Source: Blasia pusilla (taxonomy: Eukaryota). From it: a DNA stretch of 64,000 nt. The notes under the pieces are model-generated. The model saw only the letters and a list, made by a program, of their open reading frames with translations, searched no databases and had not been told where the DNA came from. This document shows, one piece after another, positions 1 to 50,000 of the stretch. The position numbers and the translations under genes are program-made. The stretch is from assembly GCA_050084515.1 (NCBI GenBank), contig CM114271.1, positions 20,770,001-20,834,000 on the forward strand, given 5' to 3'. Numbering within the stretch: position 1 is the first letter of the stretch; the number at the start of each line of letters is the position of its first letter.

Positions 1-1816
1 TCCACACACCCAATATCCCCAAATAAACTACCCAAATCCCAGAATCCCTCACACGTGCAGGGTAAAGGACCAGAATGGGTAACCTGAACACATGTCGATG
101 TCGCTCCTCATAAACTATGAATCTCGACCCCAACTCGTTCGTGGAGACAACTCCTCCAATCAGCAAGTCATACTCCTCCCGTACTGACGTTGCTCAAAAC
201 TCCTCGATAGACGGTGCAGTTCCAGCGGAACGGTGCGCGTTGCAGGCGGCACGGAACGGCATGGCCCTCGATGATGGGATGCGGCACTCGGCGGCATACC
301 CTCCTCAATCAACAATAAACCCACACTCTGCTCCACAATGCCAGAGCGGCTCCGCGATCAAGACGGTGCGGTATGGCCACGAGCGGCACGGCGCGGCAAT
401 CGACGGCGCGTTGCGGCTACGGGCGTCACGGCACGGTACCCAATCTTCGTTGAGCGGCTACCAATCACAACATAGCAGCAGGAAATCAAAACTCAAACAC
501 TATAACATGAGGTCATATGCCATCACAGGTTGATGACGGTGGCGGCCAAAACAAAGTTCGTGATGGCCACGCAAGTCCGAGAATCAACGAACGTTGTGGA
601 AGACCCTCCACTCCGTAACGGTGGCAATAGCAACCAAGGGTGGAAAACGGAAGGTGGACCATTGACGGTGACGGTTGACCGTTGATGGTGACGGACCAAT
701 GGTGACAGTGACGGTTGACCGTCGAAGGTGAAATTTTACCGTTGACGGTTGACAATGACTATGACGGCGACGGACGCCGCCGGTGTGGCGGCTGGTTTAG
801 GGTTTGCACAATTTAACCCTAAAAATTTCCTAGCAATGGCAGTATTGCACAGCGTGCACAGCTTCACGATCTATGCCAGCATTAAAAAATATTTGGAATC
901 GGACATTCCAGTAAAAACTGACAGGGATTGTTGTAAAGCCCAATGTCTCTTTCTTCTACCCAACATTCGGCAGCGCTTCCGCGCTGATTCCTCCCAAAAT
1001 AATTGTAAAACCTATAAAAATGCAAATCAGCAAGCGACATGGTGCTCCCGAAAGCACCGGCATGGGGCAACCCGCCCCCATACTCAATCCCTATCAGAAA
1101 TTGGGCAGCGCTTCCGCGCGCCACTCTTTCACACGAAAAATCGGCAAATGCAACGAAAAATCCAAGCAACCCTTGCTCCGATGAGCACTCCCATGAGCCG
1201 TTGAATGGGGAACACGGTCCCCAACCTACAAAAACAACGAGTGACCAGCGAGCTCCTCCATGAACCTCTCTCACTCTCTCATTCTCGCATTCTCTCTTTA
1301 TAAAGTAAGATTCAATCTCTCTCTACACAATCTCACACCATAGCTCTCAAAGGTGTGCACTCTCTCTCATGTCAAACCAAACCCACTCTCCTAATGAAAG
1401 GCTTGGGTTACACTCACAAGGCAAGGGACCATAGCTCCGCCGCCTCATGCCAAGAGGTTCAACAAAGAGAGAATGAGCTCTCAAGCTCTCTCTCCTTGGG
1501 ATATATACTCCTCCCCTCTCCCAAGCTCTCTCCATGGTAACCTATTCTTCCAAGTCACCTCTTTGGCTCTTGACCTGATGTAGGAGGTCAAGGGCCACTT
1601 ACCAAAAATAGAAAGTCGATCATATACTCAAAATGGTACTTACCTAAAATGGTAAGTTCCTCAATATGGTTCCAAATGAGCCAAAACGAAAGGGAAACCT
1701 ACTCTCTCAGGTTTCCCGGGGCCTCAGCAAGTCATCCTCGACCTCCTAGGCCTGTCCTCCACTACTCTTGAAGAGGCTCTACTAGATCTCATCGATCTAT
1801 CCTAAAGGACGTGATA
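1..1816 (-). mobile_element. 5' end of a second copy of the split-repeat Gypsy family: repeat A (1816-1301) plus leader region running off the window start
   Basis: Reverse complement of 1301-1816 aligns by eye with 19662-20176, 27227-27744 and 30125-30637. About 760-1300 aligns with the leader at 20177-20755. It starts TATCAC (consensus TGTCAC). Confidence 0.85.
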
Positions 1817-19025: not shown

Positions 19026-19661
19026 TTAGTTTGCACATATGTAAGTTCCTCGGGGCAAGAGTTGGAAGGATGAGTGCAAGCTAGCCCTCATTCTCTCATG
19101 GAATTTACATTGCGAAATACTATGGGGCAAGGGTGGGGAGTGCGGACATGGACGGAAAGTAGAAGGAAAAGAGGGCAAGGTTTGACGGAAATGGACAAGT
19201 CTGTCCATGGGCATGTGGACCCTGCGCACGCTATGTGAACGGTCCCTACGGGCCTCCAAACGTTTACAGTGTGCAGACTCTAAACGTTCAATCCTTGCCC
19301 ACATCTGTTTCCACGTCTCTCGCCCCACAGGCGACCAGGATACCAAACATGGATGCATAAAAAGTCCATCCCTAGGAAAACATGGAAGGACAAGTTTAGA
19401 CATGTCCACGGACATAGATTACAAGAGGAGGGGCCCATATATACTTATAGTTTATGATGGAAAATAGGGCAAGGTTGAGTGGGACAATAATGGGGGAGGG
19501 AGTGGAGGTGGAGGGAGGAAGAAATGGGAAACTCGAGAACATGTAGATAAGTGGAGGGGGAGGGGGGAGGGTTAGACCTACAAGAAGGGGTGAGTGGGGC
19601 CCATATGGATAATTCCTTCCATAGGACGGACGTAAGTCCACGGACATGGACATGTTTGTCG
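19026..19661 (+). mobile_element. hAT-type MITE-family sequence interrupted by the Gypsy insertion (resumes at 27873-27904)
   Basis: GGACATGGAC/GTCCA-rich sequence similar to 40464-40759. It continues after 27872 as gccgacacgaactttatccatatgcaacattg, matching the family's right end. The left boundary is uncertain. Confidence 0.7.
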
Positions 19662-20176
19662 TGTCACGTCTTTTAGGATATATCGATGAGATCTAGTAGA
19701 GCGCCTTTGTGAGTAGTGGAGGACAGGCGTAAGAGGTCAAGGATGACTTGCAAAGGCCCTGGGAAACCTGAGAGAGCAGGTTTCCCCTTCGTTTCGGCTC
19801 ATTTGGAGTCATATTGAGGAACTTACTATTTAAGGTAAGTACCATTTTGACTATATGGTCAACTTTCTATTTTTGGTAAGTGGCCCTTGATATCCTACAT
19901 CAGGTTAAGAGCCAAGGAGGTAACTTGGGAGCATAGGCTACCATGGAGAGAGTTTGGGAGAGGGAGGGGTATACCTGAAGGAGAGAGAGCTTGAGAGCTC
20001 ATTCTACCTTTGTTGAACCTCTTGGCATGAGGCGGTGGAACTATGGTCTTGCTTGTCTTGTGTGTGTAACCCAAGCCTCTCATTAGGAGAGTGGATTTGG
20101 TATGATATTGAGAGAGACCTGTGAGAGTGCACACATTTGAGAGCTATGGTGTTGCGAGAAATTGAATCTTGATTTA
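19662..20176 (+). repeat. Repeat A1 (contains putative TATA region and TSS near 20001)
   Basis: Direct repeat of 27227-27744, sharing diagnostic indels (atggtcttgcttg, gaatcttgattta) not found in the copies at 1301 and 30125. Confidence 0.9.
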
Positions 20177-20188
20177 CAAAGAGAGAAC
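20176..20188 (+). promoter_or_regulatory. Putative self-priming primer-binding site
   Basis: ACAAAGAGAGAA(C) is complementary to the family consensus ATTCTCTCTTTGT at the predicted TSS. No TGG-type tRNA PBS is present. Confidence 0.6.
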
Positions 20189-20759
20189 GAGATAAGTGAG
20201 AGAGCTTCATGGGGGAGCTTGCTGGTCACTCGCTGGTTTTGCAGGTTGGGGATCTTTTTTCCCCGCTCAGCAGTTCATGGGAGTGCTCACCGGAGGATGA
20301 GCCGAAGCGGCTCATATTTTATGTTTCCTTTGCCGATTTTTCGTGTGGAAGCGTTGCGCAATTTTTGATAGGTATTGAATATGGGGGGAATTTCCCCATG
20401 CTGGTGCTCTCAAAAGCACCATGTATCTTGTTGATTTTTTTTCCATAGGTTTTACATTTTTGTTGGGAGAGCGTGGAAGTGCTGCCAAATTTTGTGTAGG
20501 AGAAAAAGACGTTGCGCTTTACAACAATCCATGTATATTTTTACTGGAATGTCCGATTAAAAATATTTTTTGACGCCGTCGTAGATCGTGAAGATGTGCA
20601 CGTTGTGCAACAGATAATCTGCAATTTGAAGTGCGAGCAAAAAGTTATGGTCAATCTTGCAAAATTGCCATTGCTAGGCAATTTTTAGGGTAAAATTGTT
20701 CAAACCCTAAACTAGCCGCCGCGCGGACGGCGGCCGTCGCCGCCACAGTCATCGTTTAG

Positions 20760-20948
20760 GAGTTGGTGCGACTCACAACGGGCTAGGAAGTCTCGAGAGT
20801 TCAACCCGTTGACAGCATGGAATAGTATGTTCTAGCATTTATCAACACTCAGTTAGCTGCTATTTTGCAAGCTGGAGTGCGCGTGCAACAGTACATGTAT
20901 GTAGAGGTTGATGATGTTGCGAGGTGTGCTTCACTTCACTATGTAGAA
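20760..20948 (+). pseudogene. C5 cytosine methyltransferase remnant, N-terminal (motif I-II region)
   Basis: From 20841: INTQLAAILQAGVRVQQYMYVEVDDVARCASLH, the pattern that follows the FxGxG motif and includes the acidic motif II. Motif I itself is frameshifted. Confidence 0.6.
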
Positions 20949-21353
20949 AATATGATTCTCAAATGCAAATAATCTATATTAAAAGAAAGAAATAATATAT
21001 TTTACAATAAACATACGTAAAATATTTTTCAATCTTCTTGTAGAATATTAATGGTATCTACATAATAATGGATATACACATATGCTTCCAATATTAGATA
21101 GATATTCTTTCAATACAAAACCCATGTCCATCGCAGAACTCACAATGTAGCACCTTCACTAACATCATGCAAGAAAATTACGTCGTAGACATTATCTATT
21201 GATCCAAGTCCATTGCACATAAAACTGCTCGTAAAGAGTACAAACAAGCCATAAATAGAACTACATATGAGATATCTTGACAATGATGGTATCGCCATCA
21301 TTCTCATGGGAAATCCCATCATGCGCTCTTGTTTCTCAATATTGAGTTCTACA

Positions 21354-21603
21354 TAGGGTTGCACACGCACAAAGTCCGTGATCGTTGACACGTTCATATC
21401 CGCGGATTTATGTTTGTCATACGGATGGACGTGTTTGTGTTGGCTCAGGTATCCGGAAGCCCTCCCACAGACCGCCCTACGGGCCTACCATGGGCCCCGC
21501 AAAGGATGCGGGCTCTGTCAGCCTAGGTGTACGCGCCGGGCTCAGGTGTGGGCTAGGCATGTCTGAGGATATGTCCGCACTTGTCTGTTTCCGTGCAACC
21601 TTG
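21354..21603. mobile_element. hAT-type MITE
   Basis: TIRs TAGGGTTGCA / TGCAACCTTG; perfect 8-bp TSD GTTCTACA (21346-21353, 21604-21611). Confidence 0.9.
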
Positions 21604-21677
21604 GTTCTACAAAATGTTTTCTTATGCCTGATCATCCCAAATCAAACTAGAACATCCCTCCTTGTAAGTATTGGGGA

Positions 21678-23285
21678 AAAGGTTGCATATGGGCAAACTT
21701 TGTATCCGCGTATATGTCAATGTCTATGGACTTTCGTCAGTCCTATAGAAGGACTTGTGTAATGTACAAGAAGTATAAGAATTGATCTTTTTAGAGTTAT
21801 TTAATGAGTTTGATCCCCAAGAGGATCACGATTATGTGAAAAGAGAGTTTAAGTTGGCATTTATCTTGCAATAGTTGTAGTTAAGTGTGTACAATTCGGA
21901 TTCAATCACTGATCTGTCTATCCTTCTCTCCATTAGTTCCAAGATTTCTTTCCTTGATTCTCTCCAGTGGAATTGAATTCACGCTTAGGTAGATCTTCAC
22001 TCAACACCAAAGAACCTTAGAGAGACCTCAACAAGAAGTTGGCTTCTCCTACTTTCGGAACTCAATCCGTCTAGGCAGGCTACTCTCTATCAAACAGACT
22101 TCTTACAACTTGATGTTGAATATTCTAATGATGAAAGTGTTCTCCTGATCCACTCTTCACTCTACAGACCCAATAAGAATTCTCAGACATATGCATCGCA
22201 CATCAGAATGAAGAAATGAGTTCTTTACTACCGCATCAAGGATGAGAAAGCTTCAAAGTGTATACAAGCTTGAGAGGGTACCACTCCCTTGCTCGGACCA
22301 TTCCTACAATATAAGGACTTCGTGAAAGAATGATAAATAAATTCATGCTTCTTAAATATCTTTCAAGGTTGTAGTAGGTCCAAAGATCTGAAGCGTCTCT
22401 TATGAATCTAGTACCTATTGAGAGTTTAAAACTACCTTGATCTACGGTTCTCTTATCTTTTCCTATGATCGCTATGAATCCGCTGGGCTTAAGTGTCCTA
22501 ACTTCCTATCAGGTCCAAAAAGCCACGCCTCTTCCTAGCCTAACTATTCTAACGGTGTGCCGCTTGAAATCACGACAAGTCTTAGTTTCGCTGCGAAGTC
22601 TAGACCTCTTCTTCTTCCTTTGAGGACGAAGCTCTTCCTCTTGGTCTGAGGACGAAGCGCTGCATTCTTCACGTTTGTTCCAAGTGCTTCGTTCTTCGTG
22701 CTTCACTAAAGAGCAAAGTACTTCTTCCTCTTCTTCTTCATCGTGCTTCTTTCAAGAGCGAAGCACTTCATAAATAGGTTCTTAATAAGGCTTCGTTGTC
22801 TTTTCCAAGCTTTTCTCTGAGTCTTTACACTTAATTACTGCATTTCCCTCTCCTCTAAGGCAAGTCCTTGATTTTCCACCTCTCTGCCTTGTCCTAGGAG
22901 CCTCGTGAGCCACTTCAATACTACTCATTCTTCCAATACACAAACATAATATCTTAAAAAATGATGTATATACAAGCTTTACTTCATAGAGTCTTCATTC
23001 CTTGAATCAAAAGGTGCAAATCTCCAAAATTACAAAATTGTGGGTATCACAACTTGTCCACGTGGCCCCATCCCTCACTTCTTTCTCATTCCCCCCATTT
23101 GCCTTTGTGATCCGCACTTTTTGTTTCTTCTTCCTCTCCCCTCCACTCCATCTCCCCTTATTGCCCCACCCTTTGCCTTCCACCATGAACTATAAGTGTG
23201 AGCCCTATCTTTTGCAATCCATGTTTGTGGGCATGTCCAAACTTGTCCATCCAAGGGACAGATTTGTCCATTTTTTGCAACCATG
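21678..23285 (-). mobile_element. hAT-type MITE containing a nested solo LTR
   Basis: TIRs AAAGGTTGCA / TGCAACCATG; perfect 8-bp TSD ATTGGGGA (21670-21677, 23286-23293). Confidence 0.9.
21758..23051. mobile_element. Solo LTR (~1.3 kb) of an unrelated LTR family
   Basis: Ends TGTAAT...ATCACA; perfect 5-bp TSD ACTTG (21753-21757, 23052-23056); host MITE resumes in register. Confidence 0.85.
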
Positions 23286-23469
23286 ATTGGGGATAGGACA
23301 ATCGACTAGTGTGAAGGAGTATTTCTCTTGGCATGCTATCTATAGTATTGACCACACTCAATGGAGGTTGATTATTGGGCTTCATTTCTTTTGATCGATA
23401 TTTGAGATCCAAAATTGGATCTACCAGCAACTTGGATTGAGGGAAGCTCCATCAGTATCGTCCGTTTTT

Positions 23470-23600
23470 GTGACTTGTTATTTGCGTCTACCATTCAGGG
23501 TTACCAGAGTTCCCTACCGAGGGATATTTCATTGTTGGGGGCGCAGGACTTGGAGCGGGTAGGGACCATCGACTTGGTCACTGCTCGTTGGCCATGTCAG
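23470..23600 (+). pseudogene. C5 methyltransferase remnant with motif III and catalytic motif IV
   Basis: LPRDISLLGAQDLERVGTIDLVTARWPCQ matches the DI...D-hhh-G-x-PCQ signature; Pro-Cys codons at 23592-23597. Confidence 0.8.
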
Positions 23601-23859
23601 AATCAAATCTCCATGTGGCAAGACCCAAGGAGATTGATACACCAAGGGTGATTGGGAGAGACACCCTTGGACTTCTTGGGATGTTTTGTAGATAAGCCAG
23701 GAGATGGTAGCCACAGCATCAAGCGTGGTTGCGGGTACTGCACATGGAGATTTGATTTTGCAGTTGGTTGCAGAAGAGCAGTCGAGTTTCGTTGTTCGAG
23801 ACGGGGTTGCACCATAGCAACCACCTACACCCGCGTTGGAGAGTCCTACCATAGTCACG

Positions 23860-26780
23860 ATGGAGACATGGGAGCTTGATATGGGTCCTAAGATGACAAG
23901 AGGAGAGCGACGCTGGATACATCGTTTCCTTAGGAGTCATAGGAGTTGTTTTGCATTTAACATGTAGGATTTGGGTAACCTGATGGGTCCAGGGATCCGC
24001 ATTGAGTTTTCAGTGACACCTCGATCTTCCGACGACCCTACAGGTATAGTGACATGGAGAGGGCTCTGATTCAGAGTAGGAGCCTGGACTTGGTTGGAGC
24101 AAAACTAGTGGAGATGTCACATGGAGAGTATGCATTTGCCACTGTCATGCCCGCCAAGAAGGATGTGCATGGCAACAGGACAGATAGGTGGATGTGTGGA
24201 GATTACCGATCTATCAATCAGTGGACAAAGTCCGATAGATATGCCATATCCACTCTTGAGGAGATCTTTGATGCTATTGGGCCTGCAAAGGTCTTTAGTT
24301 CATTAGATCTTCGAGCCGGATACCATCAGCTGCCTATCAGATTGGAGGACAGGCAAAAGACGGCATTTTGGGGCATCAATCCTCACGAGAAGGATTGCTT
24401 GTACCACTGGCGGTTCTTACCATTTGGGTTAAAGAACGTCTTGGATGAGTTTCAAAGGGTCATGGATAGGATCTTGGCAGGTCTAGATGCTGCTAGGTGT
24501 TATGTTGATGACATCCTTGTCTTTAGCGTCACCGTTGATGAGAAGGAGCGACATCTAGAGGAGGTCTTTCGAAGATTATAGTTACATGGGCTGAAGCTAC
24601 ATCCAAGCAAGTGCAATTTTCTCTACGACCAGATTGAGTACTTGGGTCATACGATATACCCAGCTCGTGTTGATGTGCAGCAGATGAAGGTAGAGGTTAT
24701 TTTACCCATTCTACGCCCTACAGATATGAGTCGAGTTCGTGCATTCATGGGATTGGCAAACATCTATCGACAATAAGTCAAGGGTTTTAGCTCGATTGTG
24801 AAGCGGCTGACCTTGCTGACCAAGGTGGATCAGGAGGGGCAATGGGAGGATGAGCAGGAGAGAACATTTCACATGCTCAAGGATAGATTGACGTCCGCGC
24901 CCATATTGAGGATACGATGAGGGGGCGTCCTTTCTAGTTGCATACGGATTGGAGCATGTTCGGGCTTGGAGCCGTGCTCACCCAGCATGACGATGATGGT
25001 AGAGAGTTTTTGGTGGCTTACTCTAGTTGCTCAAACAACGTTGCAGAGGCGAAGTATAGCTCGTATGAGGGTGAGTGCTTGGCTACAGTGTGGGCTATCA
25101 TACATTTCAGATGTTATCAATCCGGAAATCCCTTTACCATCATTACTGATCATCAGCCGCTCAAGTGGTTGATGGAGTCTGATAAGCTTACATGGAAGCT
25201 TGCGAGGTGGGCTCTTTTGTTGCAGGAGAATGATTTCCATGTGGTGCAAAGACCCGGGATGCTCAACCAAGATGCAGATGGTTTGAGCCATAACCCATGC
25301 ATGAGTGAGCGAGATGCGAATGGAGCTTGTTGGCATGGTGAGAGTGATGAGGAGTTGGTGCCAAGATGGCATGCGTCAGCCTATTTGAGCTTGTTGGCTA
25401 TGGAGAGCCAGATTGCTGAGACTTCGATGTCAAGCTCTAATGTAGAGTCCTTAGATCCAAAGGCCGATGAGGAGACGACAAGTGACCGAGACATTCACGA
25501 TGATGGATTGGTCTTGAAGAACCTCCATACTAGAAGTATCGCGAGCACAGTGGGTGCTAGAGAGTGGGATCGGATCTTACAACAAGCCAAACAGTTTCGG
25601 TGAGAAGGCATACATGTGTTGCGAGTGTGGGAGGATGGTAGAGTGCATGTAGTGCCTCATCCTTTGCAGGGAGCACGTTTGGTGTGTCATGCCCACGAGG
25701 AGTTGGGTCATTTTGGAGTGAAGCGGACGTACATCTTGCTCCAGATTCAGTATTGGTGGCGAGGCATGCAGACTGACGTTTAGCGGTTTGTTGCCTGATG
25801 CATGGTGTGTGATCGAGTCCGAGCATCGTTTAATGCTCCGACTCCAAAGCTGCATCCACTTCCGATCATGGGTTTAGGTTATAGATGGATTTTGGATTTT
25901 TCAACACCTTTGCCTTTGACGGAGCGCCATTATCGCTATGAGTTGGTGATGGTCGAGCAATTCTCGAAGTAGATAGAGTTTGTTGCATTTCCTGACAAAG
26001 CGAGTGAGAGAGTAGCGTATGCCTTCCTAGATTGGGTGCTAAGTCATTATGGCACACTAGCTAAGGTGTTGACAGACCAGGGTATAGAGTTCCGTGGGGA
26101 GTTTCAAGCCTTGTGTAATCAGGCATTGATCGACCATCGCACTACTTCACGAGATCATCCTGAGGCGGATGGACTAGCGGAGCGGGTTGTGTAGATGGTG
26201 AAGAGAGGACTACGCAAGTATGGGTTGTAGAGAGGTCACCTAGGAGATTGGGACCTCCAATTGCCGTGGTTGGCGATGGGATACAGATTTAGCATATAGG
26301 CATCCTTAGCGTCTTTCTCATCGTACTTGCTTTTGTATGGTCGAAAACCAAATTTACTTGTGGCCATTCGTCAAGATGTTGGTGAGGAGTTGAATCTTGA
26401 TGACCTTCATGTATGGATACAAGCATGTTCTCAGAGGGCTGAATTATTTCAGAGATTGATGCCCATGGCGTTTGAGAACTTGGCGATTGCAAGCATGGGA
26501 ATACATTGAGGTATGCAACTATACGGGGAGGTGGTTATCTACCTACTATCTAGAGGTTTCATCAAGGAGACTATGTCTACTTGCAGCAGACGGCAGCCAC
26601 ATTGTTGGATGTGATTGCATGGTGCACCATCTTGAGAGTGCGTGAGGTTTTGCCATCACGTGTTCTCTTATTGGAGGGACGCAATGGTATGGTTTGGAAG
26701 GACCCTATGCGTAACTGTGCGCCATGTCACCTTCCGAACATTGACAGTATAGTTGATGCGAGCTTAGCAATAGTTCATGC
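23860..26780 (+). pseudogene. Gypsy pol: RT, RNase H, integrase (disrupted)
   Basis: RT: MCGDYRSIN, LDLRAGYHQL, KTAFWG, LPFGLKN, YVDD. RNase H: HTDWS..GLGAVLTQ, ECLA, TDHQPL. INT: H..H..C..C near 25690-25810, LTDQGIEF, DGLAER. Confidence 0.95.
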
Positions 26781-26790
26781 AAGCTTGCAA

Positions 26791-26931
26791 TGTATGTTGT
26801 GTGGTTCTGCCCGCGGTGCAGCCACTATCCTAGTCTGTGATGGATGTTCGAGAGGATAGCATATGGCATGTTTGATGCCACCTCTCACTAGGGTTTCTCA
26901 GGGATGATGGATGCATCTTAGATGTACATAG
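26791..26931 (+). pseudogene. PHD finger at the C-terminus of the integrase
   Basis: CMLC-x11-CDGC-SRG*HMAC-LMPPL...WMHLRC, i.e. C4HC3 spacing with premature stops. Confidence 0.85.
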
Positions 26932-27098
26932 CGTAGGTAGTTCTACATTCCAATTTGTGTCTATGACATGGATGACAAGAAGGCGACTAACGATGGGGCC
27001 ACATGAGCACCTGCCCTTCTTGCTCTAAGCGTTTGAGAGATGTATGTCATGGTAGGTAGGGAAAGATGGCTATCTACAGTTAGAGGGACCTAACCACC

Positions 27099-27111
27099 AA
27101 GTAGGAGGGCG
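27099..27111 (+). promoter_or_regulatory. Putative polypurine tract
   Basis: AAGTAGGAGGGCG directly abutting repeat B1. Confidence 0.6.
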
Positions 27112-27872
27112 ATTGGAGATATTTTGGTACTTTTTGTGTAGTTGTTTGGATGTCATGAGTAATCATGGGATCGTGTGTGTTTGTGTGTTTGTGTTCAGTG
27201 ATAGCGATGTGTATGCGCACGACAACTGTCATGTCTTTTAGGATAGATCGATGAAATCTAGAAGAGCGCCTTTGCCAGTAGTGGAGGACAGACTCAAGAC
27301 GTTGAGGATGACCTACTAAGGCCCTGGAAAAACTTGAGAGAGCAGGTTTTCCCCTTCGTTTCGGCTCATTTGGAGTCATATTGAGGAACTCACTATTTTA
27401 GGTAAGTACCAGTTTGAGTATATGGTCGACTTTCTATTTTTGGTAAATTGCCCTTGATCCCCTATATCAGGTCAAGAGCCAAGGAGGTGACTTGGGAGCA
27501 TAGGTTATCATGGAGAGAGCTTGGGAGAGGGGAGAGGTATACCTCAAGGAGAAAGAGCTTGAGAGCTCATTCTGCCTTTGTTGAACCTCTTGGCATGAGG
27601 CGGCGGAGCTATGGTCTTGCTTGCCTTGTGTGTGTAATCCAAGCCTCTCATTAGGAGAGTTGATTTGGTTTGACATTGAGAGAGAAATGTGAGAGAGCAC
27701 ACATTTGAGAGTTATGGTGTTGGGAGAGATTGAATCTTGATTTAATTGGAGATATTTTGGTACTTCTTGTCTTGTTGTTTGGATGCCTTGAGTTAGCATG
27801 GGATCGTGCGTATTTTTGTATGTGTTCAGTGACAGCGATGTATGTTGTGTACCGATGTGTATGCATAGGACA
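27112..27872 (+). repeat. 3' repeat block B1 (27112-27224) - AC - A2 (27227-27744) - B2 (27745-27872)
   Basis: B1 and B2 both begin ATTGGAGATATTTTGGTAC and end ...GACA; junction CACGACA-AC-TGTCATG. Confidence 0.9.
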
Positions 27873-29141: not shown

Positions 29142-31310
29142 TTAACCACATAGGTCAACGTGTATCGTCTCTAGAGGAGCCTTTGCTCTATTGCTGGACT
29201 CTTGTGGAGTTGGTCGTTGGTGTTGCTTGCCCATCATACAAGCTTCACATGCATCCAACACTCCAAAAATTGTTGGTAAATCAGAAACCATGCCAGATTT
29301 CTGCATCTGACTCAGTAAGGGAAAGCTTAGGTGACCAAATCTTTCGTGCCACAACTTACTACTACCAAGATCTGTATCTACACTTGTCGCGAAATCATAC
29401 AACTCGTACATATTTCCACGCCGTATATTTCATCCACTACTTTCCCATTGGCATCCTCAATGACTGCTCCAAATTTCTTAAAACAAACTTGTAAGTCGCG
29501 ATCACATAATACTGCTACTGAAAGTAAATTGCGCTTCAACTCTAGTACACACAGTACGTCAATTAACTTCTTTTCATCTCCTTTTTTTGAGACTAAAGAA
29601 ATTGTGCCTTTCCCTTCTACATAGCACTTTGCATTATTCCCAACTGTAACAACAATGGGCTCTTGCAGAGGCTATAAGGAGCTATACCAATCCTTATGAT
29701 TGGTCATATGCCTATAAGCTCCACTATCGAGCACCCATGCATCTTCACTCTTTGACTTAGTGGAATATTCTACCTGTGTGCAAAACTCTTCAATTGCTAC
29801 GCAAACATCCATCTCCTAGCAAGCATTCTAGTTCTACAGAATTTCTATACCCTCTTTTAGGTCTTAAAAAACCGTTCTTCTCATCCTAACTCCTCTTTCT
29901 ACAATCTTTGATAAGATGACGTAGCTTACCATAATCTAAGAATTTGAAAGCTTTCATTGGAAAAAAAATTTCTTGATATTTGAATTTTAATCATGATTTC
30001 TACCTCCCTGTACGTTGGTAGTAAATGCTGCATCACTTCCCTCTCTTGCTTTGAAGTGTATTTCCTCTTCTACCAACATTGCACTAAATTGTTCAAAAGT
30101 AAGCGACGTGGGTCTTACTTGAGTTTTCACGTCTTTTAGGATAGATCGGTGAGATCTAATAGAGCGCCTTCATGAGTAGTGGAGGACACGCTCAGTAGGT
30201 CGCGGATGACTTGCTGAGGCCCCAGGAAACCTGAGAGAGTAGGTTTCCCCTTCGTTTCGGCTCATTTGGAGCCATATTGAGGAACTTACTATTTTAGGTA
30301 AGTACCATTTTAGTATATGATCGAATCTCTATTTTTGGTAAGTGGCCCTTGACCTCCTACATCAGGTCAAGAGCCAAGGAGGTGACTTGGGAGAATAGAT
30401 TACCATGGAGAGAGTTTGGGAGAGGGGAGGGGTATACCTGAAAGAGAGAGAGCTTGAGAGCTCATTCTCTCTTTGTTGAACCTCTTGGCATGAGGCGGCG
30501 GAGCTATGGTACCTCGCCTTGTGAGTGTAACCCAAGCCTCTCATTAGGAGAGTGGGTTTGGTTTGACATGAGAGAGAGTGCACACCTTTGAGAGCTATGT
30601 TGTGAGATGGTGGAGAGAGAGATTGGATCTTACATTAATTGGAGATATTTTGGTATTTCTTGTCTCGTTGTTTGGATGCCATGAGTTAACATGGGATCAT
30701 GCGTGTTTGTGGGTGTGTTCGGTGACAGCGATGTATGTTGTGTAGCGATGTGTATGCGCACGACAGAATATTCAATGCAGTGACCAAACTGTCATACCTC
30801 GGAGGCAAAATCCTTATGCACCGACGTGCCAAATCTTCGCTAGACTTTGAAATTCCTACGGACGCCATCTGATCTTGAAGAGTCTTGATCCTCATCAAAA
30901 ATTTCTCCACGCTTTCTCGTTCTGAAAATTTCTCAAACATAATCTAATTCTCTAGATTCTGAATCTGAGTCTCATTCCTGGTTGCATACTGATTCTTTAG
31001 AATGTTCCACACCTTAACAACAATGGTCGTAGTCATGACAGAATAGTTAGTTACATTTGTGAAAATTGCATATAGAGCATTAGTGTTTCCATGCCAGCAA
31101 TACTTCACGATTGATATCACCAGAGAAAGATGAACATGCAGAACTCAAAGTAGCTTTTGGATTCAAATCGACCCTTGTGGTCGTCTCCCATATCTTCAAT
31201 TATTCGAGGATAGTTCTCATTTTGAACTTCCACAATGTATAGTTAGACCCATCTAACTTTCCTTCATCCAGCGGAGGAGGGCGAACATAATCTGACGAAG
31301 AAGTAGCCAT
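29142..31310 (-). mobile_element. Truncated Ty1/Copia gag-protease-integrase start
   Basis: ATG 31310 MATSS..KLDGSNYTLWKFKM (gag), LPPRYDSLVTAL, WVLDSGA..HMT (protease, ~29720), LWHERFGH..CEAC..GKQH..IHVDLCG (GAG-pre-integrase / INT start). Confidence 0.92.
30125..30765 (+). mobile_element. Solo A-B unit of the split-repeat Gypsy family inserted in the Copia gag
   Basis: A 30125-30637 directly fused to B 30638-30765; ends CACGACA; 4-bp TSD GAGT/GAAT; removal restores Copia frame ALNTQVRP. Confidence 0.9.
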
Positions 31311-39697: not shown

Positions 39698-40463
39698 CGT
39701 CATCGACCGCTACACACTGATTGACTACAAATATCATGCCAACCTGCAATGGTTAATTATTTTGGCCATTCATGGGATCGAGTTTTGAATTTTTTCTACT
39801 CTGCCTAGTGATTGGTAGCTGCTAGACATTGATCAAGTATCGTGTCAAGGCGCTCATAGTCATAATGCGTCGCCAATTTTTGCATCGTACCACTCCTAAT
39901 CACGCTACACTATCTTGATCACGCAGCCGTACCAACGCTCAGACGCGGAGCATTTTTTCCCAATATATAAGTGATACAAGTTCTTGTTGCATCCTATCAT
40001 CAAGTGCCATGTCATTTGTTGCCATTTTGTGCCACCATTGCAGCAACGTACCATTATAACTATACCTCACTATTGAGGACTTAAGGAGGAGTGAGTACCA
40101 TTGGCATCTGGAAGTACAACTCGCTAATTGGAAGATTTTATCTTCATGATCGAGTTGGAGCCAAGTTTGGAATTGCTAAGGAGAAACACCAACATGGTGT
40201 TCAAGTTATGCTTTTTAGTCCTTTACGTACACATGTGAGGGATTTCCTAGTATTGGATATCTATTGTAGTATTCGGATTTTTACAAATGATGGGACTATC
40301 TTGGACGTATGGGATTATGGGACATAGAATTGTGTAGGATATCCAAAGTTATGATTATGCCAGGTTGATGAGGGGATAGAATAGCAAACGATTTGTCATA
40401 CCAATTTGCTTGTTGCCACACTCTACACGTCTCAATGGGAGACAGTATAAATGGAGTGATGCA

Positions 40464-40759
40464 CATGGTTGCACAAAATGGACAAGTCCTTATTCAGGAC
40501 GGACATGGACGGACGTTTGGACATGTCCACAAACATGGGTTCCAAGAGGTAGGACCCACACTTTGAGTCCATGATGGAAGGCAAGGCAAGGATGAGAGGA
40601 GCAATGAGGGAGGAGGGAGGAAGAAATGGGGGAGTATAGAACACGAAGGCAAGTAAGGGGAATGAGAAAGAAGGGAATGGTGGGGCCTATATGGACAAGT
40701 CCTTCCATAGGACGGACATAAGTCCACGGACACGGACTTTGTCCACATATGCAACCTTG
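40464..40759 (+). mobile_element. hAT-type MITE (intact)
   Basis: TIRs CATGGTTGCA / TGCAACCTTG; perfect 8-bp TSD GTGATGCA (40456-40463, 40760-40767). Confidence 0.92.
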
Positions 40760-42367
40760 GTGATGCACCTTTTAGGTTCAAGTGATTGAGGGATTACTCA
40801 CAAAGTTGAGAGTGATCATGCAAGGGGATCATCATGACGTCCTTTCAAGACTTTGAGAGACAAGGTGGTAATATTTTCAGAGTCTCCATATAAGAGACCA
40901 TCTCAACCTCTTTATGTGTCTTCCTCAGATGAAGGAGAGGTCGTAGAGAAGAAGGTTGTTAGTGCAACATTGCATATGTTGAGTAGTCATACCATTTGGG
41001 CATACAAGATACATAGCTAGGATAGAGGACCCCATATGTTTTTGGGAGATGTAGGTACCATAGAGTTGCACAACTTCATTGTAAAATTTAGGAGTTAGTG
41101 TGATTTGTGGAGGGCTATGAACTGTATAGAGTTCAACCCTTTCACAACATAGAGTGGTATGTTCCAACCTCCAAAGGGGGAACCCATGGACAATTACGAT
41201 GAGTTTTCCCATAGGTTTGTGTCTGACATCACTAGGAGAAATCCCTGGTTTTATGACTGGGTTATATGACTCATACAAGTCATACTTTACATTCCATGAC
41301 TAGCAATGACTAACGACTATTTTAGACACAAAAGCCAAATCATATTTGCCTTGCGATTGGGCTAACTAAGATGGTCGGCTTAGGCGGACGTTGGTATATG
41401 ACTAGAGGGTGTAGTCATGAGGCCACGACTGACACATCACTTTGATGACATGGAATAATGACACATCAACGCATGATATGGACTAATTGGTGTGACATGA
41501 CATTGATGAAGTGGAGTATGAAAGATAACTCGTGTAGTCATATCTAGGGTATCTGTCTAGTTACCACTAATGACTACCGTAGTCATGTGTAGTCATATAA
41601 AAGTACATTGTATTGAATGAAAATGTGACAAGTGTACCATATGGATGAGGAATCCACTTGGTGGTAATAGTCATGCCTCCATCAATCATTAAATTTTTGC
41701 ATTCAGTCATAGTTCACAACTCGTGTAGTCATATCAATTTTTCCACTACTGTAATTTACTCACGTAGTCATGTTTAGTCACTCGCCGAGTAGTGACTAGG
41801 GTAGAAGGCCCTACAACTAGTGTAGACATGATAATACGACTGTGGGAGTTGCGGGCATGACATTATGAATCCTATAGTCATTGCAATAGGACTGAATAAG
41901 TCATGTTTAGTGACTAGGTAGGAATGATACCTCACTACACCAATAATATTGATATGACTCGTAGTGACTGTAGATTTTATTTATGAGTTTATTAATATCT
42001 TTTGAAAGATCATTCACTTGTAATTGGATGTGAATTACTGAAATCCTTGTGTCCATTTCTGTTTGAATTGCAACCCTAAACCCTAAAGCATATACATGAA
42101 CATAAAATGCAATTTGGAATAAATGCACACAACCAGCAACATGGCAACTCAACAACAAGGGGATGAAATGCATATAGAACATAATATGAATGTCTTAAAA
42201 GTAAAGTCTGATATCAGAATTGGCATGGTTTCTGATTCTCATATCCAACAAACCAAATATCTTAAGCCAATAAAGTCACTTGAAAAGAGAAGTCTACGCA
42301 CCTGAGGTAGTTTGGTGCTAGAAAGAAAATCTACTCTACTAAATCACCTTCCTCATGTAATCTCTGG

Positions 42368-44038: not shown

Positions 44039-47000
44039 TGTCGCGACCCTCATAACCAAACAACACCAAATACGCGCCAAGCGAAACATCAGAACTCAAA
44101 GGAACTCACGCCGCGAGGTTTGCGCTTTGGAGAGGCGTTTGGAAGAGTCTCTTGGAAAAGTCTAAGAGACGTAAACGTGGAACAGAGTTGTGCGTTTCAT
44201 GCGTTAGTGGTCGCGACCAGGAAACCTAGACCAAACGCGAGCCGAGACTTGAGATGAGTTGAGTCTTGGAGGTTGGTTGCCAAAGAGGTGAGAACCAGTT
44301 TGGAACACGGCTAGCGTTTGGGAGAATCTGACTGTGTTTAGGACCATAACGTTGAGCTCCGAGATGCGTTCGGGACAAGTAAGGACGCGTTGGAAAGCTG
44401 ATCTTGAGACGCTTCCAACGCACCAAAGATCTCAGCAAACGCATAAGTACAGGCTGAGATATTGGCCGAAAACGATTCAGAGAGCAATCGGGTTGAGGGC
44501 CAAGTGGTGTCTTCCCCTAAATGTAGGGGGCCCCGGAGATCCCCAGAAGTAATAGTAGGGGAGTACCTTCTCTGAGATGTCTCGGGAAACGAAACCCCAC
44601 TTTGGGCGCCAAACGGCGTTTGAGGGCAGATGAAACGGGAGTTTGGCGCTGAAACCCAAACCCAAACCTGATCCAAGGGAGTGGACTTTGTATGCCACAC
44701 TTGGATTCCAACCGAGATTCACGTGAGAGTCTTGGTGAGGAACTCATTGGATGTTCATCGGACGATTAGAACCGCTTAGGCGCGAAACGCCGTTTCAGTT
44801 CCTGAACCGACGAAAAGTCTGTCCCAAGTCTTTCGAGACTTGCCCGTGTTGGAAACCGCGAAACTAGGAAGGTTGAGCTTGAAGAGAGAGTCCGAGACGA
44901 GAACTCGGAAAGTAATCCCGCTGATTGATCCAAGACCCGACTAACCGGTGCGTGTTTGGATGCAGATTAGCGTTGAGAGCGTGACCTCAACGCACGCTTC
45001 GCAACAAACAAGATTAACGTTCAAGGAGAGTAGGCGCACGACACGTGGTATCGAGCAATTCCTTGATGAGCGTGAACTTAGGTCGTTGAAGATCTGGGCG
45101 TTTGGGGAGAACTCAAGGTAGCCGGAAGACCGCGACGCCGAGGAGGAACGCAAGAGGCGAGGAGGAGATCTGAGAAAAGGCGACGACTTCGCAAATGGCG
45201 ACCAAGGGCGAAGAACCGAGAAACCGCGAGTCAAAGCAAAGAAGCCAAGAGCGAATCAATGACGGACCGAGAGCCGGAGGTGGAATTTGCGACTCGAAGT
45301 GCCGAGTCCCAGACATGAGGATGTTCCAACCGAAAATCTTTCGCGGGACCTTCGGGTCCAAACTTAAACGATCCGGCCTTTTATACCCAAATGATGGGAT
45401 TGATGAAGGTGATGGCGGACCAGATGGTGAAACAGAGCAAGGTGATCTCGAATTCAAGTCAAATGGAGCCTCTAGCTCGGCAAGAAGCTTTGTAAGACTA
45501 ATTTGCCAACGCCATTCACACAGAATGGGGCGTTCTCGGAAAGTGAGCGAAGTTTCTAACGGAACTCGAACTCTATTTCGAGCGCAAAGGCAGATGAACA
45601 AGACAAGGTGATCAGAAGCGGTCACGTTTACGAAGGATCACGCTCTCCATTGGTGGACGGCTCACCGGAAAGAACATCTAGGTCGTGGGAAAACGTTGAG
45701 TTGGGAAGATTTCAAGGAGTTGATTGGGAACCGATTCACTCCGGAATATCAGGAGTACCGCGATGGCATGGAGGTGGTGAGGTTGCGCCAGAGTGGATCA
45801 CTTGGTGCTTATGTGCGAGAGTTTAGTGCGCTCATGAGTGCACTTTCCACGGACGAACATACTAAAAAGGTGATCTTCCTAAGTGGGCTCAAACCGAGTG
45901 CCGAGAAGGCTCTCTTTCGTATGCCTCACATCCCAGAGACGTGCGCGGACCTCTTGAGACTAGCCGAGCGGATTGGGGACGATGAGGTCCAACACCCGAA
46001 ACCCTTTGAGACCAAAAGTTTTTCTAAGTTCTGAGAAGAATAAAGGGACATCCAAGAGGGTTTGGAATGGGGGTGAGCGCGACCACGGAGGGTCTCGCCC
46101 AAATGGCTAAACGAGTGGAACTCAACGCTGAAGCTTTAAGGGCCGCCGTTCTGACGAAGTCAACGAATGCCAAAGTGATTTGTTATAATTGTGGCGAACC
46201 CGGGCATATGGCTAAGGAATGTGTGAGGCCCAAGGTTAGTAAACCGAGTATGATTGCGTTTGCCGCTAAGCATTTATCGGAGGGAGATCTAGATACATCT
46301 CTACAAGTCACCAAGAGGACGCCCAATTTGGTTTACCTAGGATCCAAGATCGCTAATCGCGATGTGATGTTGCTCGTTGATACAGGTGCTTCGCACTCAT
46401 TCTTGAGTCCGAGAATCGTAAAAACGTTGGGATTGCCAACCACCAAAGCGGATGAACCCATTAGGGTAGGATTCGCGGGAGGAAAATCCCACCAGACATC
46501 AGATCTGGTTTTAGGGCTAGTTGTGAGATGCGGAGTATTTGAGTTGAAGGAGAATTTTCTGATTTTGCGAGATGGACGGTATCGACGGAGTCTTGGGAAC
46601 ACGTTCTTGGATGCGTATGAGGTGGAACGAGGCGGAGACCTTTGAGGTTAAGCGTCTTGGTTAACGGCAAACGGATGGACGTCAGATTGGTTCGTGAGGT
46701 GCCTAGAAAGACGGAGTTGGTGAACGCCATCACGAGGACGAGTTTGGCGAGTTAGAGGAAGGATTCCTTTGCTTGATGAGACAGTAGAGGATGATGCAAG
46801 CGCAAGATGCAGAGATCAGAACTCAGCTTCAAGGGAGATCCTGAAACACTCAAGAGAGTTGTGAAAGAATTTGAAGATGTGTTGACTAAGGAGCTTCCGA
46901 CTGAGTTGCCACCACATAGGGCGGTTGATCATAAGATTGAGGTGATACGGGGATCTCAACCACCTTCAAAGGCACCATATAGGTTGAATCAAGAGGAACT

Positions 47001-50000
47001 TGCTGAGTTGAAGAAACAGTTGGGTGAACTCCTAGAGAGGGGTTACATCCGAACGAGCAAGTCACCTTATGGGGCGCCCGTCCTCTTTGTCAAGAAGAAG
47101 GATGGGAAGTTGAGACTCTGTGTTGATTATCGGGCGCTGAATAAAGTGGCGGTAAGGAATAACTATCCTCTACCGAGGATGGATGACCTCTTTGATCGAT
47201 TGTCGGGTGCCAAGTATTTCAGCGGATTGACCTGAAATCAGGATATTATCAGATTCGGATTGCCGAAGCGGATGTAGAGAAGACTGCTGTAGGACGAGAT
47301 ACGGTTCGTTCGAGTTTGTAGTAATGCCTTTCGGTCTTTGTAATGCGCCTCCGACGCGTTTACCACTTTGATGAACTCCATCTTTCACAAGGAGACGGAT
47401 GAGTTTGTGATCATCTATATAGATGACATACTCATCTATTCGAAAACACTAGAGGAGCACGCTCGACATTTGAAGACGGTGTTTGAGAAACTTAGGGCGA
47501 ACAAGCTGTATGCGAATGCGGATAAGAGTGAGTTCGGTTTGACGAAGATCAAGTTCTTGGGACATGTGGTCAGTGCGGATGGAGTGAGTCCAGACATGGA
47601 AAAGGTGAGCGCGATTGCCGAATGGGAACCGCCTTCCACGGTGAAGGGGATGCGAAGGTTCATTGAGAGTCATCGATTTTACGGACATACGTGAAGAATT
47701 TTTCGGGCATAGTGAAACCTCTCACGGATTGGACCGCAAAGTTTGCCAATACTACATGGACCGAGGAAGTGGATAAAGCGTTCAATCGAGTCAAAGAGAT
47801 CCTCTCGCAGGAACCAGTTCTGAAACTGCCGGAGTTTGAACAACCGTTCGAGGTGCACACGGATGCTAGTGATTTCGCGATTGCAGGAATGTTGGTGCAA
47901 AAAGGGAGACCTGTAGCATACGAAAGCAAGAAGCTGACCGACACCGAAAGGAGATGGCCTACTCATGAGAAAGAGTTGTTTGCGGTGGTTCATTGCTTGA
48001 GGAAGTGGCGTCACTATTTGGGACTTCACAGACTCGAGTATTCACCGATAACATATCGCTCAAGTATTTTGAGACCAGGATCGCGTGGCGCCAAAACAAC
48101 CGGTGGCATGATACCTTGGTGTTGATGAATGTGGAGCTAATCCACAAGCTGGGAAAGACAATGTCATTCCGGATCGTTAAGTCGCAGGATGAACACATGC
48201 CATCGACACAAGTGTTGAGAGCAATGTTCCCTAATGAAACAGACCTGGAAAGAAGGATTCGTGAAGGATACATGAAGGATGAGCAAGCGAGGGAGTACCT
48301 TGGGAAGTTAAAGCGGGGCGAAAAGGTGGCCAATCTGAGTTTGAGACACGGCTTGCTAAGGTTTAAGCAGAGCAGGATCTATGTAGGCCAAGGCAAGCTA
48401 CGAACCAAGGTGTTTGTGGAATGTCATGATGGACCTTTGGCGGGACACAAAGGGGAGAAATCCACTCTTGTTGTTTTGTCTAAGAGGTTCTTCTGGCCCA
48501 ACATGAAGGAAGATGTTGCTCAATATGTGAAAACATGCGTGACCGCCAAAGCGAACCAGCGTGTCTTATGCGAAGAAACAAGGTTTACTTCATCCTTTGC
48601 CAATCCCGGAGGGACCCTTGCAAAGCATTAGCATGGATTTCATTACGAGTCTTCCAGAATCTGAGGGATACAACGCTATACTTGTGATAGTTGATCGGTT
48701 TAGCAAGTTGGGGAGGTTTGTGCCGACGAGAGAGTGCGACGCCCACGCGACTTCGACTATTCCTGGATGGTTGGTGGCGTCGCACGGATTGCCTAGGAGC
48801 ATTGTGTCCGATTGGGATCTGAAGTTTACAAAGTGCCTTTTGGAAACATCTATTCAGGAGGTTCCGGACCAAACTCAGCTTTAGTACGGCCTTCCATCCT
48901 CAAACGGATGGGCAAACGGAAAAAGTAAACTCGGTCGTAAACCAATACTTACGGAATTACGTGAGTGCGGACCAAAGAGATTGGGCCAAGTGGTTAAGTA
49001 TGGCTGAGTATTGTTACAACTCGACTAAGCATTCTCGCAACCGAGAATCTCCGTTTTTCTGGCGTATCAAAGAGAACCATAAGGGCCTCTTGACTTAGCT
49101 CTTCGAAGGGCAATACATCGACACACACTCGTCAAGCAAACGGCGGAATGTTTGTTAGTGGAAATGCAGGAACAACAAGAGCGAAGCGAGAGAAAGTCTC
49201 GCCAAGGCTCAACTAAGGTACGTAAAGCATGCTAACAAAAGTTGGCGCCATGTGAGTTTCAAGTTGGGGAACAAGTGTGGTTGAGTGTTAAGAATCTCAC
49301 TCTTCCGAAAGAATTTCTCGAAATTGTCACCAAGTATCTTTGGACCGTATGTGATCAAGGCAAAGCCGTTTGAGGATGTGTACACGTTGAGCCGCTAAAC
49401 GAGTTCAAGATTCACCCGACTTTCCATGTGTCATTATTGAAGAAGTATCTTCAAGATAATGTGCGCCCGGAGCGAAGGAGGATGTTGAGACCACAACCGG
49501 TCATCGTAAATGAGGAACCGAGTTCGAGGTTGAGACTATTCTGCGTTCCAGACGTAGGGCCACCAATCTGAGTACTTGGTCAAGTGGAAAGGCTATCATG
49601 TGAAAGAGGCGACTTGGATTATGGAGGCGGATCTAGAAACATGCGCAAGAAGCATTGCGTGACTTCATATGGATGCAAGAAAGGCACGTGCGTTAGTACA
49701 TGGTGAAGCAATGGACATAACTTGTGACCGGAAAGCTTGGGCCGATAACCCATTGTAACTAGAAAGGTTTAGTTGTTGCAATAAAGAAGACATGGATTTG
49801 GAGATTCGATGCTTGTATTGTAATTTTGAGTTTGGTTTGTGCAAGGCAATGAGTAGTTCTTCATATGCTTAGGATGTAAGTCAAGGAGACCAAACAATGA
49901 GTATTTGAGGTGAGAGCTTGTATTCGAGATAAGGCATCTAGATCGGGACCAAGTGTTGAAGTACTAGCATTTGGGCTCGCCCTAACGCCGGGCGGGGGCA

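Follow-up and report, generated by a model that had tools for sequence, protein, structure and literature searches.

The stretch analysed here, hereafter the window, comprises 64,000 nucleotides of the bryophyte Blasia pusilla (GenBank assembly GCA_050084515.1, contig CM114271.1, positions 20,770,001 to 20,834,000 of the forward strand). Between its positions 19662 and 27872 lie the remains of a Ty3/gypsy retrotransposon in which pieces of a cytosine-C5 DNA methyltransferase (DNMT) precede the reverse transcriptase (RT). We conclude with high confidence that these are what is left of one copy, now dead, of a bryophyte family of the kind named Gypsy-DNMT3, with internal deletions and rearrangements. 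The features are collected in Table 1, where P and L numbers are our handles for related proteins and metagenome loci.

Table 1. Features of the Gypsy-DNMT3 relic and associated repeats, in window coordinates (HMM, hidden Markov model; ORF, open reading frame; aa, amino acids)
Feature	Position	Strand	Evidence or remark
Repeat Q copy abutting A1	19380-19660	+	
Split direct repeat A1 (5' terminal repeat)	19662-20176	+	90% identity over 518 nt to 27227-27744
Leader (5' untranslated), shortened	20177-20748	+	with A1 matches 1814-752 (-), 78% over 1136 nt
gag N-terminal remnant (~aa 17-57 of relatives)	20749-20838	+	tblastn: P0069 aa 17-46, E=3e-4; P0054 aa 30-57, E=0.041
frag1, DNMT motif I-II remnant	20826-20972	+	stop-to-stop ORF with LAAILQAGVRVQQYMYVEVD; family HMM E=2.5e-8, positions 31-69
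Interposed DNA, ~2.4 kb	20973-23405	.	cuts DNMT after motif II at one residue, P0062 aa 599/599
frag2 ORF with ERMMGFP	21140-21484	-	stop-to-stop ORF
frag2 core, inverted DNMT motif IX remnant	21278-21364	-	family HMM E=0.095, positions 286-316
Repeat Q copy by inverted DNMT piece	23052-23285	-	72% to 40464-40700
Inverted DNMT remnant, motifs VIII-IX interval	23281-23436	-	LVDPILD...VVN...PR..L.T..SYPQS; family HMM positions 224-271
frag3, DNMT motifs III-IV with catalytic PCQ (23592-23600)	23406-23651	+	DISLL...IDLVTARWPCQ; family HMM E=1.1e-13
Post-DNMT tail GDWERHPWTSWDVL	23647-23688	+	HPWTSWDVL at 23662-23688, another frame; P0062 aa 906-923 on 23662-23715
Conserved in-frame stop (TAG CAA CCA)	23815-23817	+	between gag-protease-DNMT ORF and pol
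pol remnant	23818-26928	+	leader, RT 24006-24911, RNase H 24923-25603, integrase ~25604-26491, C-terminal region
PHD finger	26770-26928	+	aligns with P0009 aa 983-1027, PF00628 (2.1e-9)
Polypurine-tract-like motif AACCACCAAGTAGGAGGGCG	27092-27111	+	before B1; same motif before B1 in L056, L030 and L066
Split repeat B1	27112-27226	+	27112-27210 86% identical to 27745-27841; ends GCGCACGACAAC as in relatives
Split repeat A2	27227-27744	+	90% identical to A1
Split repeat B2 (3' terminus)	27745-27872	+	matches B1, 86%
Repeat Q copy upstream of second gag	40464-40743	+	

The terminal repeats of the element are split (A...B-A-B), unlike the two equal long terminal repeats (LTRs) of a canonical LTR retrotransposon. 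Because A1 matches A2 and B1 matches B2, the window element reads A1-coding-B1-A2-B2, which is the A-coding-B-A-B layout of Gypsy-DNMT3 elements. Whole-genome shotgun (WGS) reads of the source organism concentrate on the A and B repeats. Immediately ahead of 19662, 54 reads that stem from other copies break off into differing flanks (agreement 0.36), and this breakpoint marks the terminus of the element; at the other end, 48 reads with loose ends behind 27864 read 'GCACGACA' and then run into diverse flanks. The bases flanking the window element (GTCG and GCCG) do not match each other exactly; 4-bp target duplications can be read off the flanks of L056 (AAGG), L030 (TCTC) and L066 (AATC). When the A and B repeats of L056 were mapped on all loci, these same three had the full A-coding-B-A-B layout, L002 had it as far as the locus end, B-A-B was present in L015 and L048, and an A repeat lay about 3 kb upstream of the protease in 19 loci. 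Spacing from A1 to the gag start is 1.1-1.3 kb in relatives. Two forms of the 3' end occur among the relatives, a single B after pol and B-A-B, and the cause may lie in how the elements replicate or in recombination of their repeats.

A preliminary description, made from the letters of the window, had reported three DNMT fragments within this element, and all three peptides were found where it had placed them; set against relatives, frag1 and frag3 stand far above chance, and frag2 is weaker. An HMM built on 15 relatives' DNMT domains was searched against the 3280 six-frame ORFs of the window. The four best-ranking ORFs were, in order, frag3, frag1, an ORF on the minus strand at 23451-23161 and frag2, all others having E>1. 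With a liverwort profile frag3 scored E=1.3e-19. By tblastn, aa 555-599 of the relative P0062 fall on 20829-20963 in frag1 (44% identity, 1.8e-8) and aa 599-646 on 23463-23606 in frag3 (67%, 1.8e-14), with similarity beyond the PCQ extending to about 23630. In frag1 the glycines of the S-adenosylmethionine loop are lost on alignment, LAFINTQ standing in the place of LFGGISTG. The PCQ of frag3 lies on the pol strand upstream of RT, as previously described, at a distance of 406 bp from the start of the RT ORF at 24006 (about 450 bp in the earlier estimate). Searched alone against 1.84 billion representative proteins, frag3 retrieved 30 matches at E<=1e-3 (best 3.5e-10); nine carry the C5-methylase family PF00145, every other Pfam family occurs in at most one member, and the remaining matches are mostly short fragments that end near PCQ. 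Through homology, frag3 overlaps the stretch of P0019 matched by PF00145 (aa 460-478).

The coding region around these fragments is heavily damaged. The gag remnant is 74% identical at the nucleotide level to 41087-41164, itself within a stronger gag match at 41024-41260 (5e-11). By tblastn, a stretch of about 830 residues, from about Gag residue 58 through the protease and the linker, has been deleted, so that Gag residue ~57 adjoins DNMT motif I at 20829. The interposed 2.4 kb then splits the DNMT; none of the eight ORFs of this DNA and the upstream repeat region matched a Pfam family at or above its curated cutoff. Since the post-DNMT tail follows soon after PCQ in another frame, about 235-250 residues comprising motifs V-X are missing in place; against the liverwort profile the tail matches weakly, at positions 900-910 (E=1). 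Two pieces of the missing motifs lie inverted within the 2.4 kb, 1.9 kb apart, and the interval starts with a repeat Q copy. This arrangement may have arisen by inversion with deletions, from filler DNA of another copy, or as an assembly error. Of the canonical series of motifs (I FxGxG, IV PCQ, VI ENV, VIII RxR) the window copy retains PCQ alone, with VI and VIII absent in place, and so represents the remnant of an enzyme gene, no longer the gene itself.

Beyond the DNMT come the post-DNMT tail, the stop and the pol leader, as is usual for the family and as seen in 41 of the 71 metagenome loci, and the DNMT remnants stand upstream of RT. P0019 aa 696-747 align to 23869-24039, with the rest of pol next, and P0009 covers pol in four high-scoring segments and three frames (38% identity in the leader, 57-63% elsewhere), with at least three frameshifts and 14 in-frame stops. 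Pfam families RVT_1 (3.4e-16, ORF 24006-24581) and RT_RNaseH (2.2e-29, ORF 24938-25603) scored above their cutoffs; rve reached 22.5 bits, under its cutoff of 32.6, and the whole integrase is nonetheless covered by tblastn. In the PHD finger two tryptophan codons have become stops. The window copy is dead: it can express no protein and has no function of its own. The preliminary description had called it dead as well, a view borne out by the loss of Gag and protease, of motifs V-X in place, and by the stops in pol; its association of the DNMT with split repeats and a PHD finger likewise agrees with the PF00628 alignment and the A1, B1, A2 and B2 repeats.

The relatives show what has been lost. 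A search for longer proteins with the RNase H ORF gave 52 matches, of which 14 carry a PHD finger and four carry PF00145: P0019 and P0025 of Marchantia polymorpha, KFL_009030040 of Klebsormidium nitens (P0040), and P0033, a protein of 1516 aa with DNMT, RT, RNase H, integrase and PHD finger in one ORF. PF00145 scored 29-35.6 bits against a cutoff of 22 in these four and in P0054; it lies between the protease region and RT, and the profile is matched in part (positions ~58-120 of 324). Twenty-five proteins were found with the DNMT region of P0019 as query, 16 from M. polymorpha, one each from Calypogeia fissa and Sphagnum fallax and seven unnamed. Among metagenome contigs scanned with a gag-protease-DNMT alignment, 71 loci encode the module, and in 41 of them the pol of the window (from 23862) aligns at 68-75% nucleotide identity about 50 nt past the DNMT end. 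The window element can accordingly be placed in a Ty3/gypsy family with a C5 methyltransferase upstream of RT, and the 25 proteins and 71 loci show that the module recurs in many copies. Neither of the refuting outcomes named in the preliminary description, lack of a PF00145 match or absence from other copies, was thus borne out. Median identity of the loci to named models is 63.8% for Sphagnum and 63.2% for Marchantia, too similar to decide their host. An RNase H tree with 57 rows puts the window sequence into a 25-row clade (Shimodaira-Hasegawa-like approximate likelihood-ratio support 82) together with Riccia, Calypogeia, DNMT models of Marchantia and loci that bear the DNMT, which indicates a host of bryophyte type; an unresolved polytomy outside this clade contains Klebsormidium, Closterium and Tetraselmis.

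The relatives carry Integrase_H2C2 and rve, giving the RT-RNase H-DDE integrase order of Ty3/gypsy elements, and their Pfam scans contained no phage-integrase (tyrosine recombinase) family. P0053 (1248 aa) and P0054 (1278 aa) consist of Gag with a CCHC knuckle, a DSG-type protease motif and the DNMT, followed by a stop. In the source genome WGS depth is 18.6x across 23374-23664, as against at most 1x in unique parts, and many copies must therefore share frag3. RNA reads mapped to the element in numbers of 58, 70 and 53 per run; most are 95-99% alike to it and oriented as sense transcripts of a stranded library, and their coverage includes 23374-23955. They point to other copies, transcribed at a low level, and not to the window copy. 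Two polyproteins of about 2000 aa, P0071 and P0072, have between RNase H and integrase a DNMT-like domain that is homologous to that of Marchantia (35-39%) and reads ECQ where the latter reads PCQ; a PHD finger is also present. Either the module moved within the polyprotein or there were two captures.

A feature common to the bryophyte elements is the in-frame stop between DNMT and pol. Besides the window, 40 of the 71 loci have it at the same site; of these 41 stops, 29 are TAG and 12 TAA, and the next codon is CAA in all 41. Among 42 loci with matches on either side of it, 33 have ORF1 and ORF2 in one frame. P0053 and P0054 terminate at this stop and pol-only protein models begin right after it; P0033 and P0040 are without it. 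Certain plant viruses have leaky stops in a similar context, with CAA as the next codon. Folding of 36 distinct sequences from the region of the stop with RNAalifold gave a weak consensus alone (-10.2), with no conserved RNA structure downstream, and single-sequence z-scores near the stop were +0.3 (window), -2.0 and -2.3. The conserved stop suggests that pol is expressed by read-through and that the DNMT is part of the abundant Gag-Pro product, which in turn suggests its production in structural, Gag-like amounts. The in-frame Gag-protease-DNMT-RT fusion that the preliminary description had wished to see checked has the right order; it is not a plain fusion, the bryophyte DNMT ending the gag-protease ORF ahead of the stop. 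Sequence comparison among the relatives shows the layout of intact members to be A, long leader, ORF1 (Gag, protease, Dnmt3-like DNMT), UAG or UAA with CAA, ORF2 (RT, RNase H, DDE integrase, PHD finger), polypurine tract and B-A-B.

We determined the type of the enzyme by searching a profile of nine gag-protease-DNMT relatives against solved structures (PDB). DNMT3A was the best match (3.8e-13), with DNMT3C and DNMT3B at about e-11; the three together span 3.8e-13 to 9e-9. Weaker matches were plant DRM (2e-5), HaeIII and HhaI (3e-5 to 6e-4) and DNMT2 (3e-3). The DNMT3A alignment spans motifs I to VIII (LFDGIATG to RARYFWGNL) and is weak at motif IX. Since DNMT3A, DNMT3C and DNMT3B outrank DRM and the bacterial enzymes, we assign a Dnmt3-type enzyme and not one of the Dcm-like kind that the preliminary description had named for comparison. 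The order of motifs in the relatives is I-IV-VI-VIII-IX, not permuted, and FGG..G (I), PCQ (IV), ENV (VI) and SRAH..R (VIII) are invariant in all nine. In a protein atlas the domain falls in a C5-methylase cluster whose commonest phylum is Streptophyta, with phage clusters at ranks 2 and 3.

Selection on the domain was judged from the ratio of non-synonymous to synonymous substitutions (dN/dS). Between subfamilies (L018 against nine others, 312 codons) it was 0.14-0.25, as against 0.69-1.03 and 1.7-2.3 in out-of-frame controls for the same pairs, and distances by codon position were 0.31/0.20/0.52. These codon comparisons show purifying selection on the DNMT between subfamilies.

Elements of the Gypsy-DNMT3 kind are already known; the window relic adds a bryophyte member. 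KnitGypsy-Dnmt3 of Klebsormidium nitens was described in 2018, with A-coding-B-A-B repeats (de Mendoza et al. 2018, PMC5890265), and P0040 is a member by name and architecture. It shares with the elements described here a pol of Ty3/gypsy type with RT, RNase H and DDE integrase, a DNMT of Dnmt3 type that is not rearranged and lies between protease and RT, the split repeats, the lack of introns and purifying selection (Ka/Ks<0.2, PMC5890265, vs 0.14-0.25 between subfamilies here). It differs in its host, a charophyte alga and not a land plant, and in its reading frames, since P0040 continues through RT and integrase in a single ORF whereas the bryophyte DNMT ends ORF1 before a stop; the window copy, moreover, is a relic. 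The PHD finger of the bryophyte elements follows integrase, and the P0040 sequence ends before that point. In the literature found, partly in extract, no land-plant or bryophyte Gypsy-DNMT3 element was described, although supplementary tables may list bryophyte sequences; nor was a stop-separated ORF1 ending in DNMT, or a PHD finger, described for Gypsy-DNMT3. The text of PMC5890265 contains neither 'Marchantia' nor 'liverwort', and later papers, in the portions accessible, speak just of 'streptophytes (Gypsy-DNMT3)' (among PMC12344493, bioRxiv 10.64898/2026.05.21.726589, PMC11982613, PMC6453930 and bioRxiv 10.1101/363937).

Other systems are more distant. SymbioDIRS-Dnmt3 of Symbiodinium, for which de novo CG methylation in yeast was shown, likewise has a Dnmt3-type DNMT in a retrotransposon polyprotein and A-coding-B-A-B repeats (PMC5890265); it is a DIRS element with a tyrosine recombinase and an unrelated RT lineage, whereas the elements here have a DDE integrase (rve). 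With DIRS elements as such, the window family has the repeat layout alone in common. The catalytic domain of animal DNMT3A, DNMT3B and DNMT3C is the top match among solved structures, but the relatives lack PWWP and ADD domains and embed the enzyme in a Gag-protease polyprotein. Chromoviruses, also of the Ty3/gypsy type, have a chromodomain behind their integrase, presumably steering integration, together with ordinary LTRs and no DNMT. They share with the bryophyte elements a chromatin-reader module on the integrase C terminus, which in the latter is a PHD finger (PF00628 in relatives) instead of a chromodomain.

Could the three fragments be chance resemblances in non-coding retrotransposon debris? 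They are short (48-114 aa), and Pfam and PDB searches with the fragments by themselves came back empty. The E-values of 1.1e-13 for frag3 and 2.5e-8 for frag1, the position of the best four of all 3280 ORFs within 20.8-23.65 kb, and the retrieval of PF00145 proteins from 1.84e9 representatives by frag3 leave this explanation a practically negligible probability. For frag1 and frag3 chance is refuted by the family HMM and the frag3 search. We regard it as highly improbable, too, that a family itself without a methyltransferase once captured part of a Dnmt3 gene, or of a Dnmt3 pseudogene, from its host. The window has no second copy holding the fragments and many relatives' models are pol-only, which would fit such an event; yet the pol-only models start just past the conserved stop, the depth of frag3 is ~18x, the DNMT has the same position in 16 Marchantia models, in Calypogeia, Sphagnum, Klebsormidium and the 71 loci, and 41 of those loci have it directly upstream of window-homologous pol. 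A weightier alternative, which we still consider unlikely, accepts frag1 and frag3 and takes the minus-strand matches for chance, the C-terminal half of the DNMT having simply been deleted. It draws on the modest E-values of the ORF at 23451-23161 (0.021 with the family HMM, 0.0057 with the liverwort profile) and of frag2 (0.095 and 0.76), on the insignificance of AMDL and on the several rearrangement steps that an inverted, interrupted half-domain requires. Set against this, the two pieces rank third and fourth of the 3280 ORFs and lie on the same strand within the very 2.4 kb by which the DNMT is split; their order follows that of the protein (positions 224-271, then 286-316), and three to four relatives each place them identically by tblastn (frag2: P0060 aa 579-607, E=0.004; P0069, 0.011; P0062, 0.019; the 23436-23281 remnant: P0062 aa 753-799, E=0.024). 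The motif IX/X-like fragment of the preliminary description therefore survives in part: its ERMMGFP is collinear with the profile, on an inverted piece out of place, and its AMDL carries no significance alone.

The source of the enzyme can be weighed in the same way. PF00145 includes bacterial enzymes and the second and third neighbours in the protein atlas are phage clusters, which would fit horizontal transfer of a methyltransferase of the Dcm or restriction-modification type. With DNMT3A, DNMT3C and DNMT3B at 3.8e-13 to 9e-9 against 3e-5 to 6e-4 for HaeIII and HhaI, and an alignment to DNMT3A spanning motifs I-VIII, such an origin is very improbable. Independent acquisition, in which bryophyte elements took up Dnmt3 separately from KnitGypsy-Dnmt3, for example from a bryophyte host DNMT3, deserves more consideration. 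Repeated DNMT capture by retrotransposons has been described (PMC5890265), P0071 and P0072 hold the module between RNase H and integrase, Klebsormidium stands outside the bryophyte clade of the RNase H tree in an unresolved polytomy, and the tree covered element sequences alone. The two nevertheless have the same protease-DNMT-RT order and DNMT domains 43% identical over 254 aa (E=6.6e-53), far closer than either is to DNMT3A; RNase H and integrase are 36-47% identical, and both lineages carry the unusual A-coding-B-A-B repeats. We consider independent acquisition rather improbable.

Several results speak against this reading of the window element and its family, or leave it less secure. The PF00145 search that had been suggested earlier succeeded in the relatives, above the gathering score, and failed on the window: none of the three fragments alone matched PF00145 at E<=1. 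PDB phmmer with the fragments found nothing at E<=10, and neither did a word-based protein search with frag3. Because no library recognises the window fragments directly, the DNMT identification relies on homology to relatives. Frag2 is borderline with both profiles, and AMDL lies 31 codons past MGFP in a different frame, ranking 189th of the 3280 ORFs. WGS depth of at most 1x in the unique parts of the interposed DNA is too sparse to confirm or reject the inversion. In L008, L012, L023 and L052 the 3' end is a single B and not B-A-B. The Pfam scan of P0054 gave no protease family at E<=1e-3, the protease being assigned by its DSG motif alone. The dN/dS comparison also has another side, for the value between subfamilies is not repeated within the main one: there dN/dS is ~0.6 (317 pairs from 26 loci free of gaps, out of 32 whose core is in one frame), the same as out-of-frame controls of 0.49 and 0.57. 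The DNMT core is stop-free in three of those 32 loci, and nearly all 71 loci are decayed; to judge from these ratios, main-subfamily metagenome copies decayed neutrally after insertion. Finally, in the only published assay of a Gypsy-DNMT3 domain that we found, the Klebsormidium domain produced no methylation in yeast, a result its authors deemed inconclusive (PMC5890265), and methylation activity was demonstrated for no Gypsy-DNMT3 domain in the literature found.

With the window element taken as a dead Gypsy-DNMT3 copy, a joint mechanism for intact members can be outlined, which we regard as possible though on balance unlikely. The methyltransferase would be translated as the C-terminal domain of Gag-Pro, packaged in the particle and freed there by the protease. 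It would then methylate new cDNA, as the preliminary description had suggested, or the fresh insertion, de novo, and the PHD finger of the integrase would read histone tails and so choose the insertion site. On this proposal the DNMT would be in excess over RT and integrase, owing to its position at the C terminus of Gag-Pro and to the stop read-through that RT and integrase would need. A broader reading is more doubtful still: that bryophytes, including Marchantia polymorpha, host an old and still transcribed Gypsy-DNMT3 branch in which the DNMT ends Gag-Pro before a leaky UAG-CAA, each particle holds many DNMT and few RT and integrase molecules, the element's own cDNA is methylated before or at integration, the PHD finger reads histone tails, and the lineage is older than the split between Klebsormidium-like algae and land plants.

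If this were so, the element would bring its own writer and its own reader of chromatin marks. A cytosine methyltransferase encoded by a retrotransposon inverts the usual logic in which the host silences the transposon. The only green plant or algal case that we found described is that of Klebsormidium, where enzyme activity could not be demonstrated. The relic and its relatives place Gypsy-DNMT3 elements in land plants, namely in liverworts and, by a named gene model, at least one moss. Whether a transposon benefits from methylating DNA becomes testable in Marchantia because of its 16 DNMT gene models and its genetic tractability.

Further pieces of the family lie elsewhere in the window. A second fragment starts with the repeat Q copy at 40464-40743 and continues with a gag N terminus at 41024-41260 (P0054 aa 9-84, 5e-11). 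A peptide with weak likeness to motif VIII, HQRMIWTN (E=3.5), lies 190 nt past this gag at 41449-41544, and the whole may be one more copy with internal deletions. On the minus strand, an A repeat with leader occupies 752-1814 (78% to 19664-20755), and the adjoining 43-494 (-) resembles 39780-40244, upstream of repeat Q and gag in the second copy, which suggests a family leader of about 2 kb in this genome. Repeat Q, with a further match at 21721-21758 (-) and a read depth of ~8x, is either part of this long leader or a separate repeat. Within the interposed DNA, RNA reads at 21628-21918 (depth 0.8-2.6) have a mate orientation opposite to that in the rest of the element, and this DNA probably belongs to a different repeat transcribed on the other strand.

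A third A-B unit is found at 30127-30766 (85-88% to A2-B2), 2.25 kb past the element end. The interval contains Ty1/copia fragments on the minus strand with gag_pre-integrs (4.9e-14, 29142-29429) and Pol_BBD (3.5e-12, 29378-29671). Two other Ty3/gypsy pol remnants, at 46930-48960 (+) and 60695-62512 (-), are 25-35% identical to the Gypsy-DNMT3 family.

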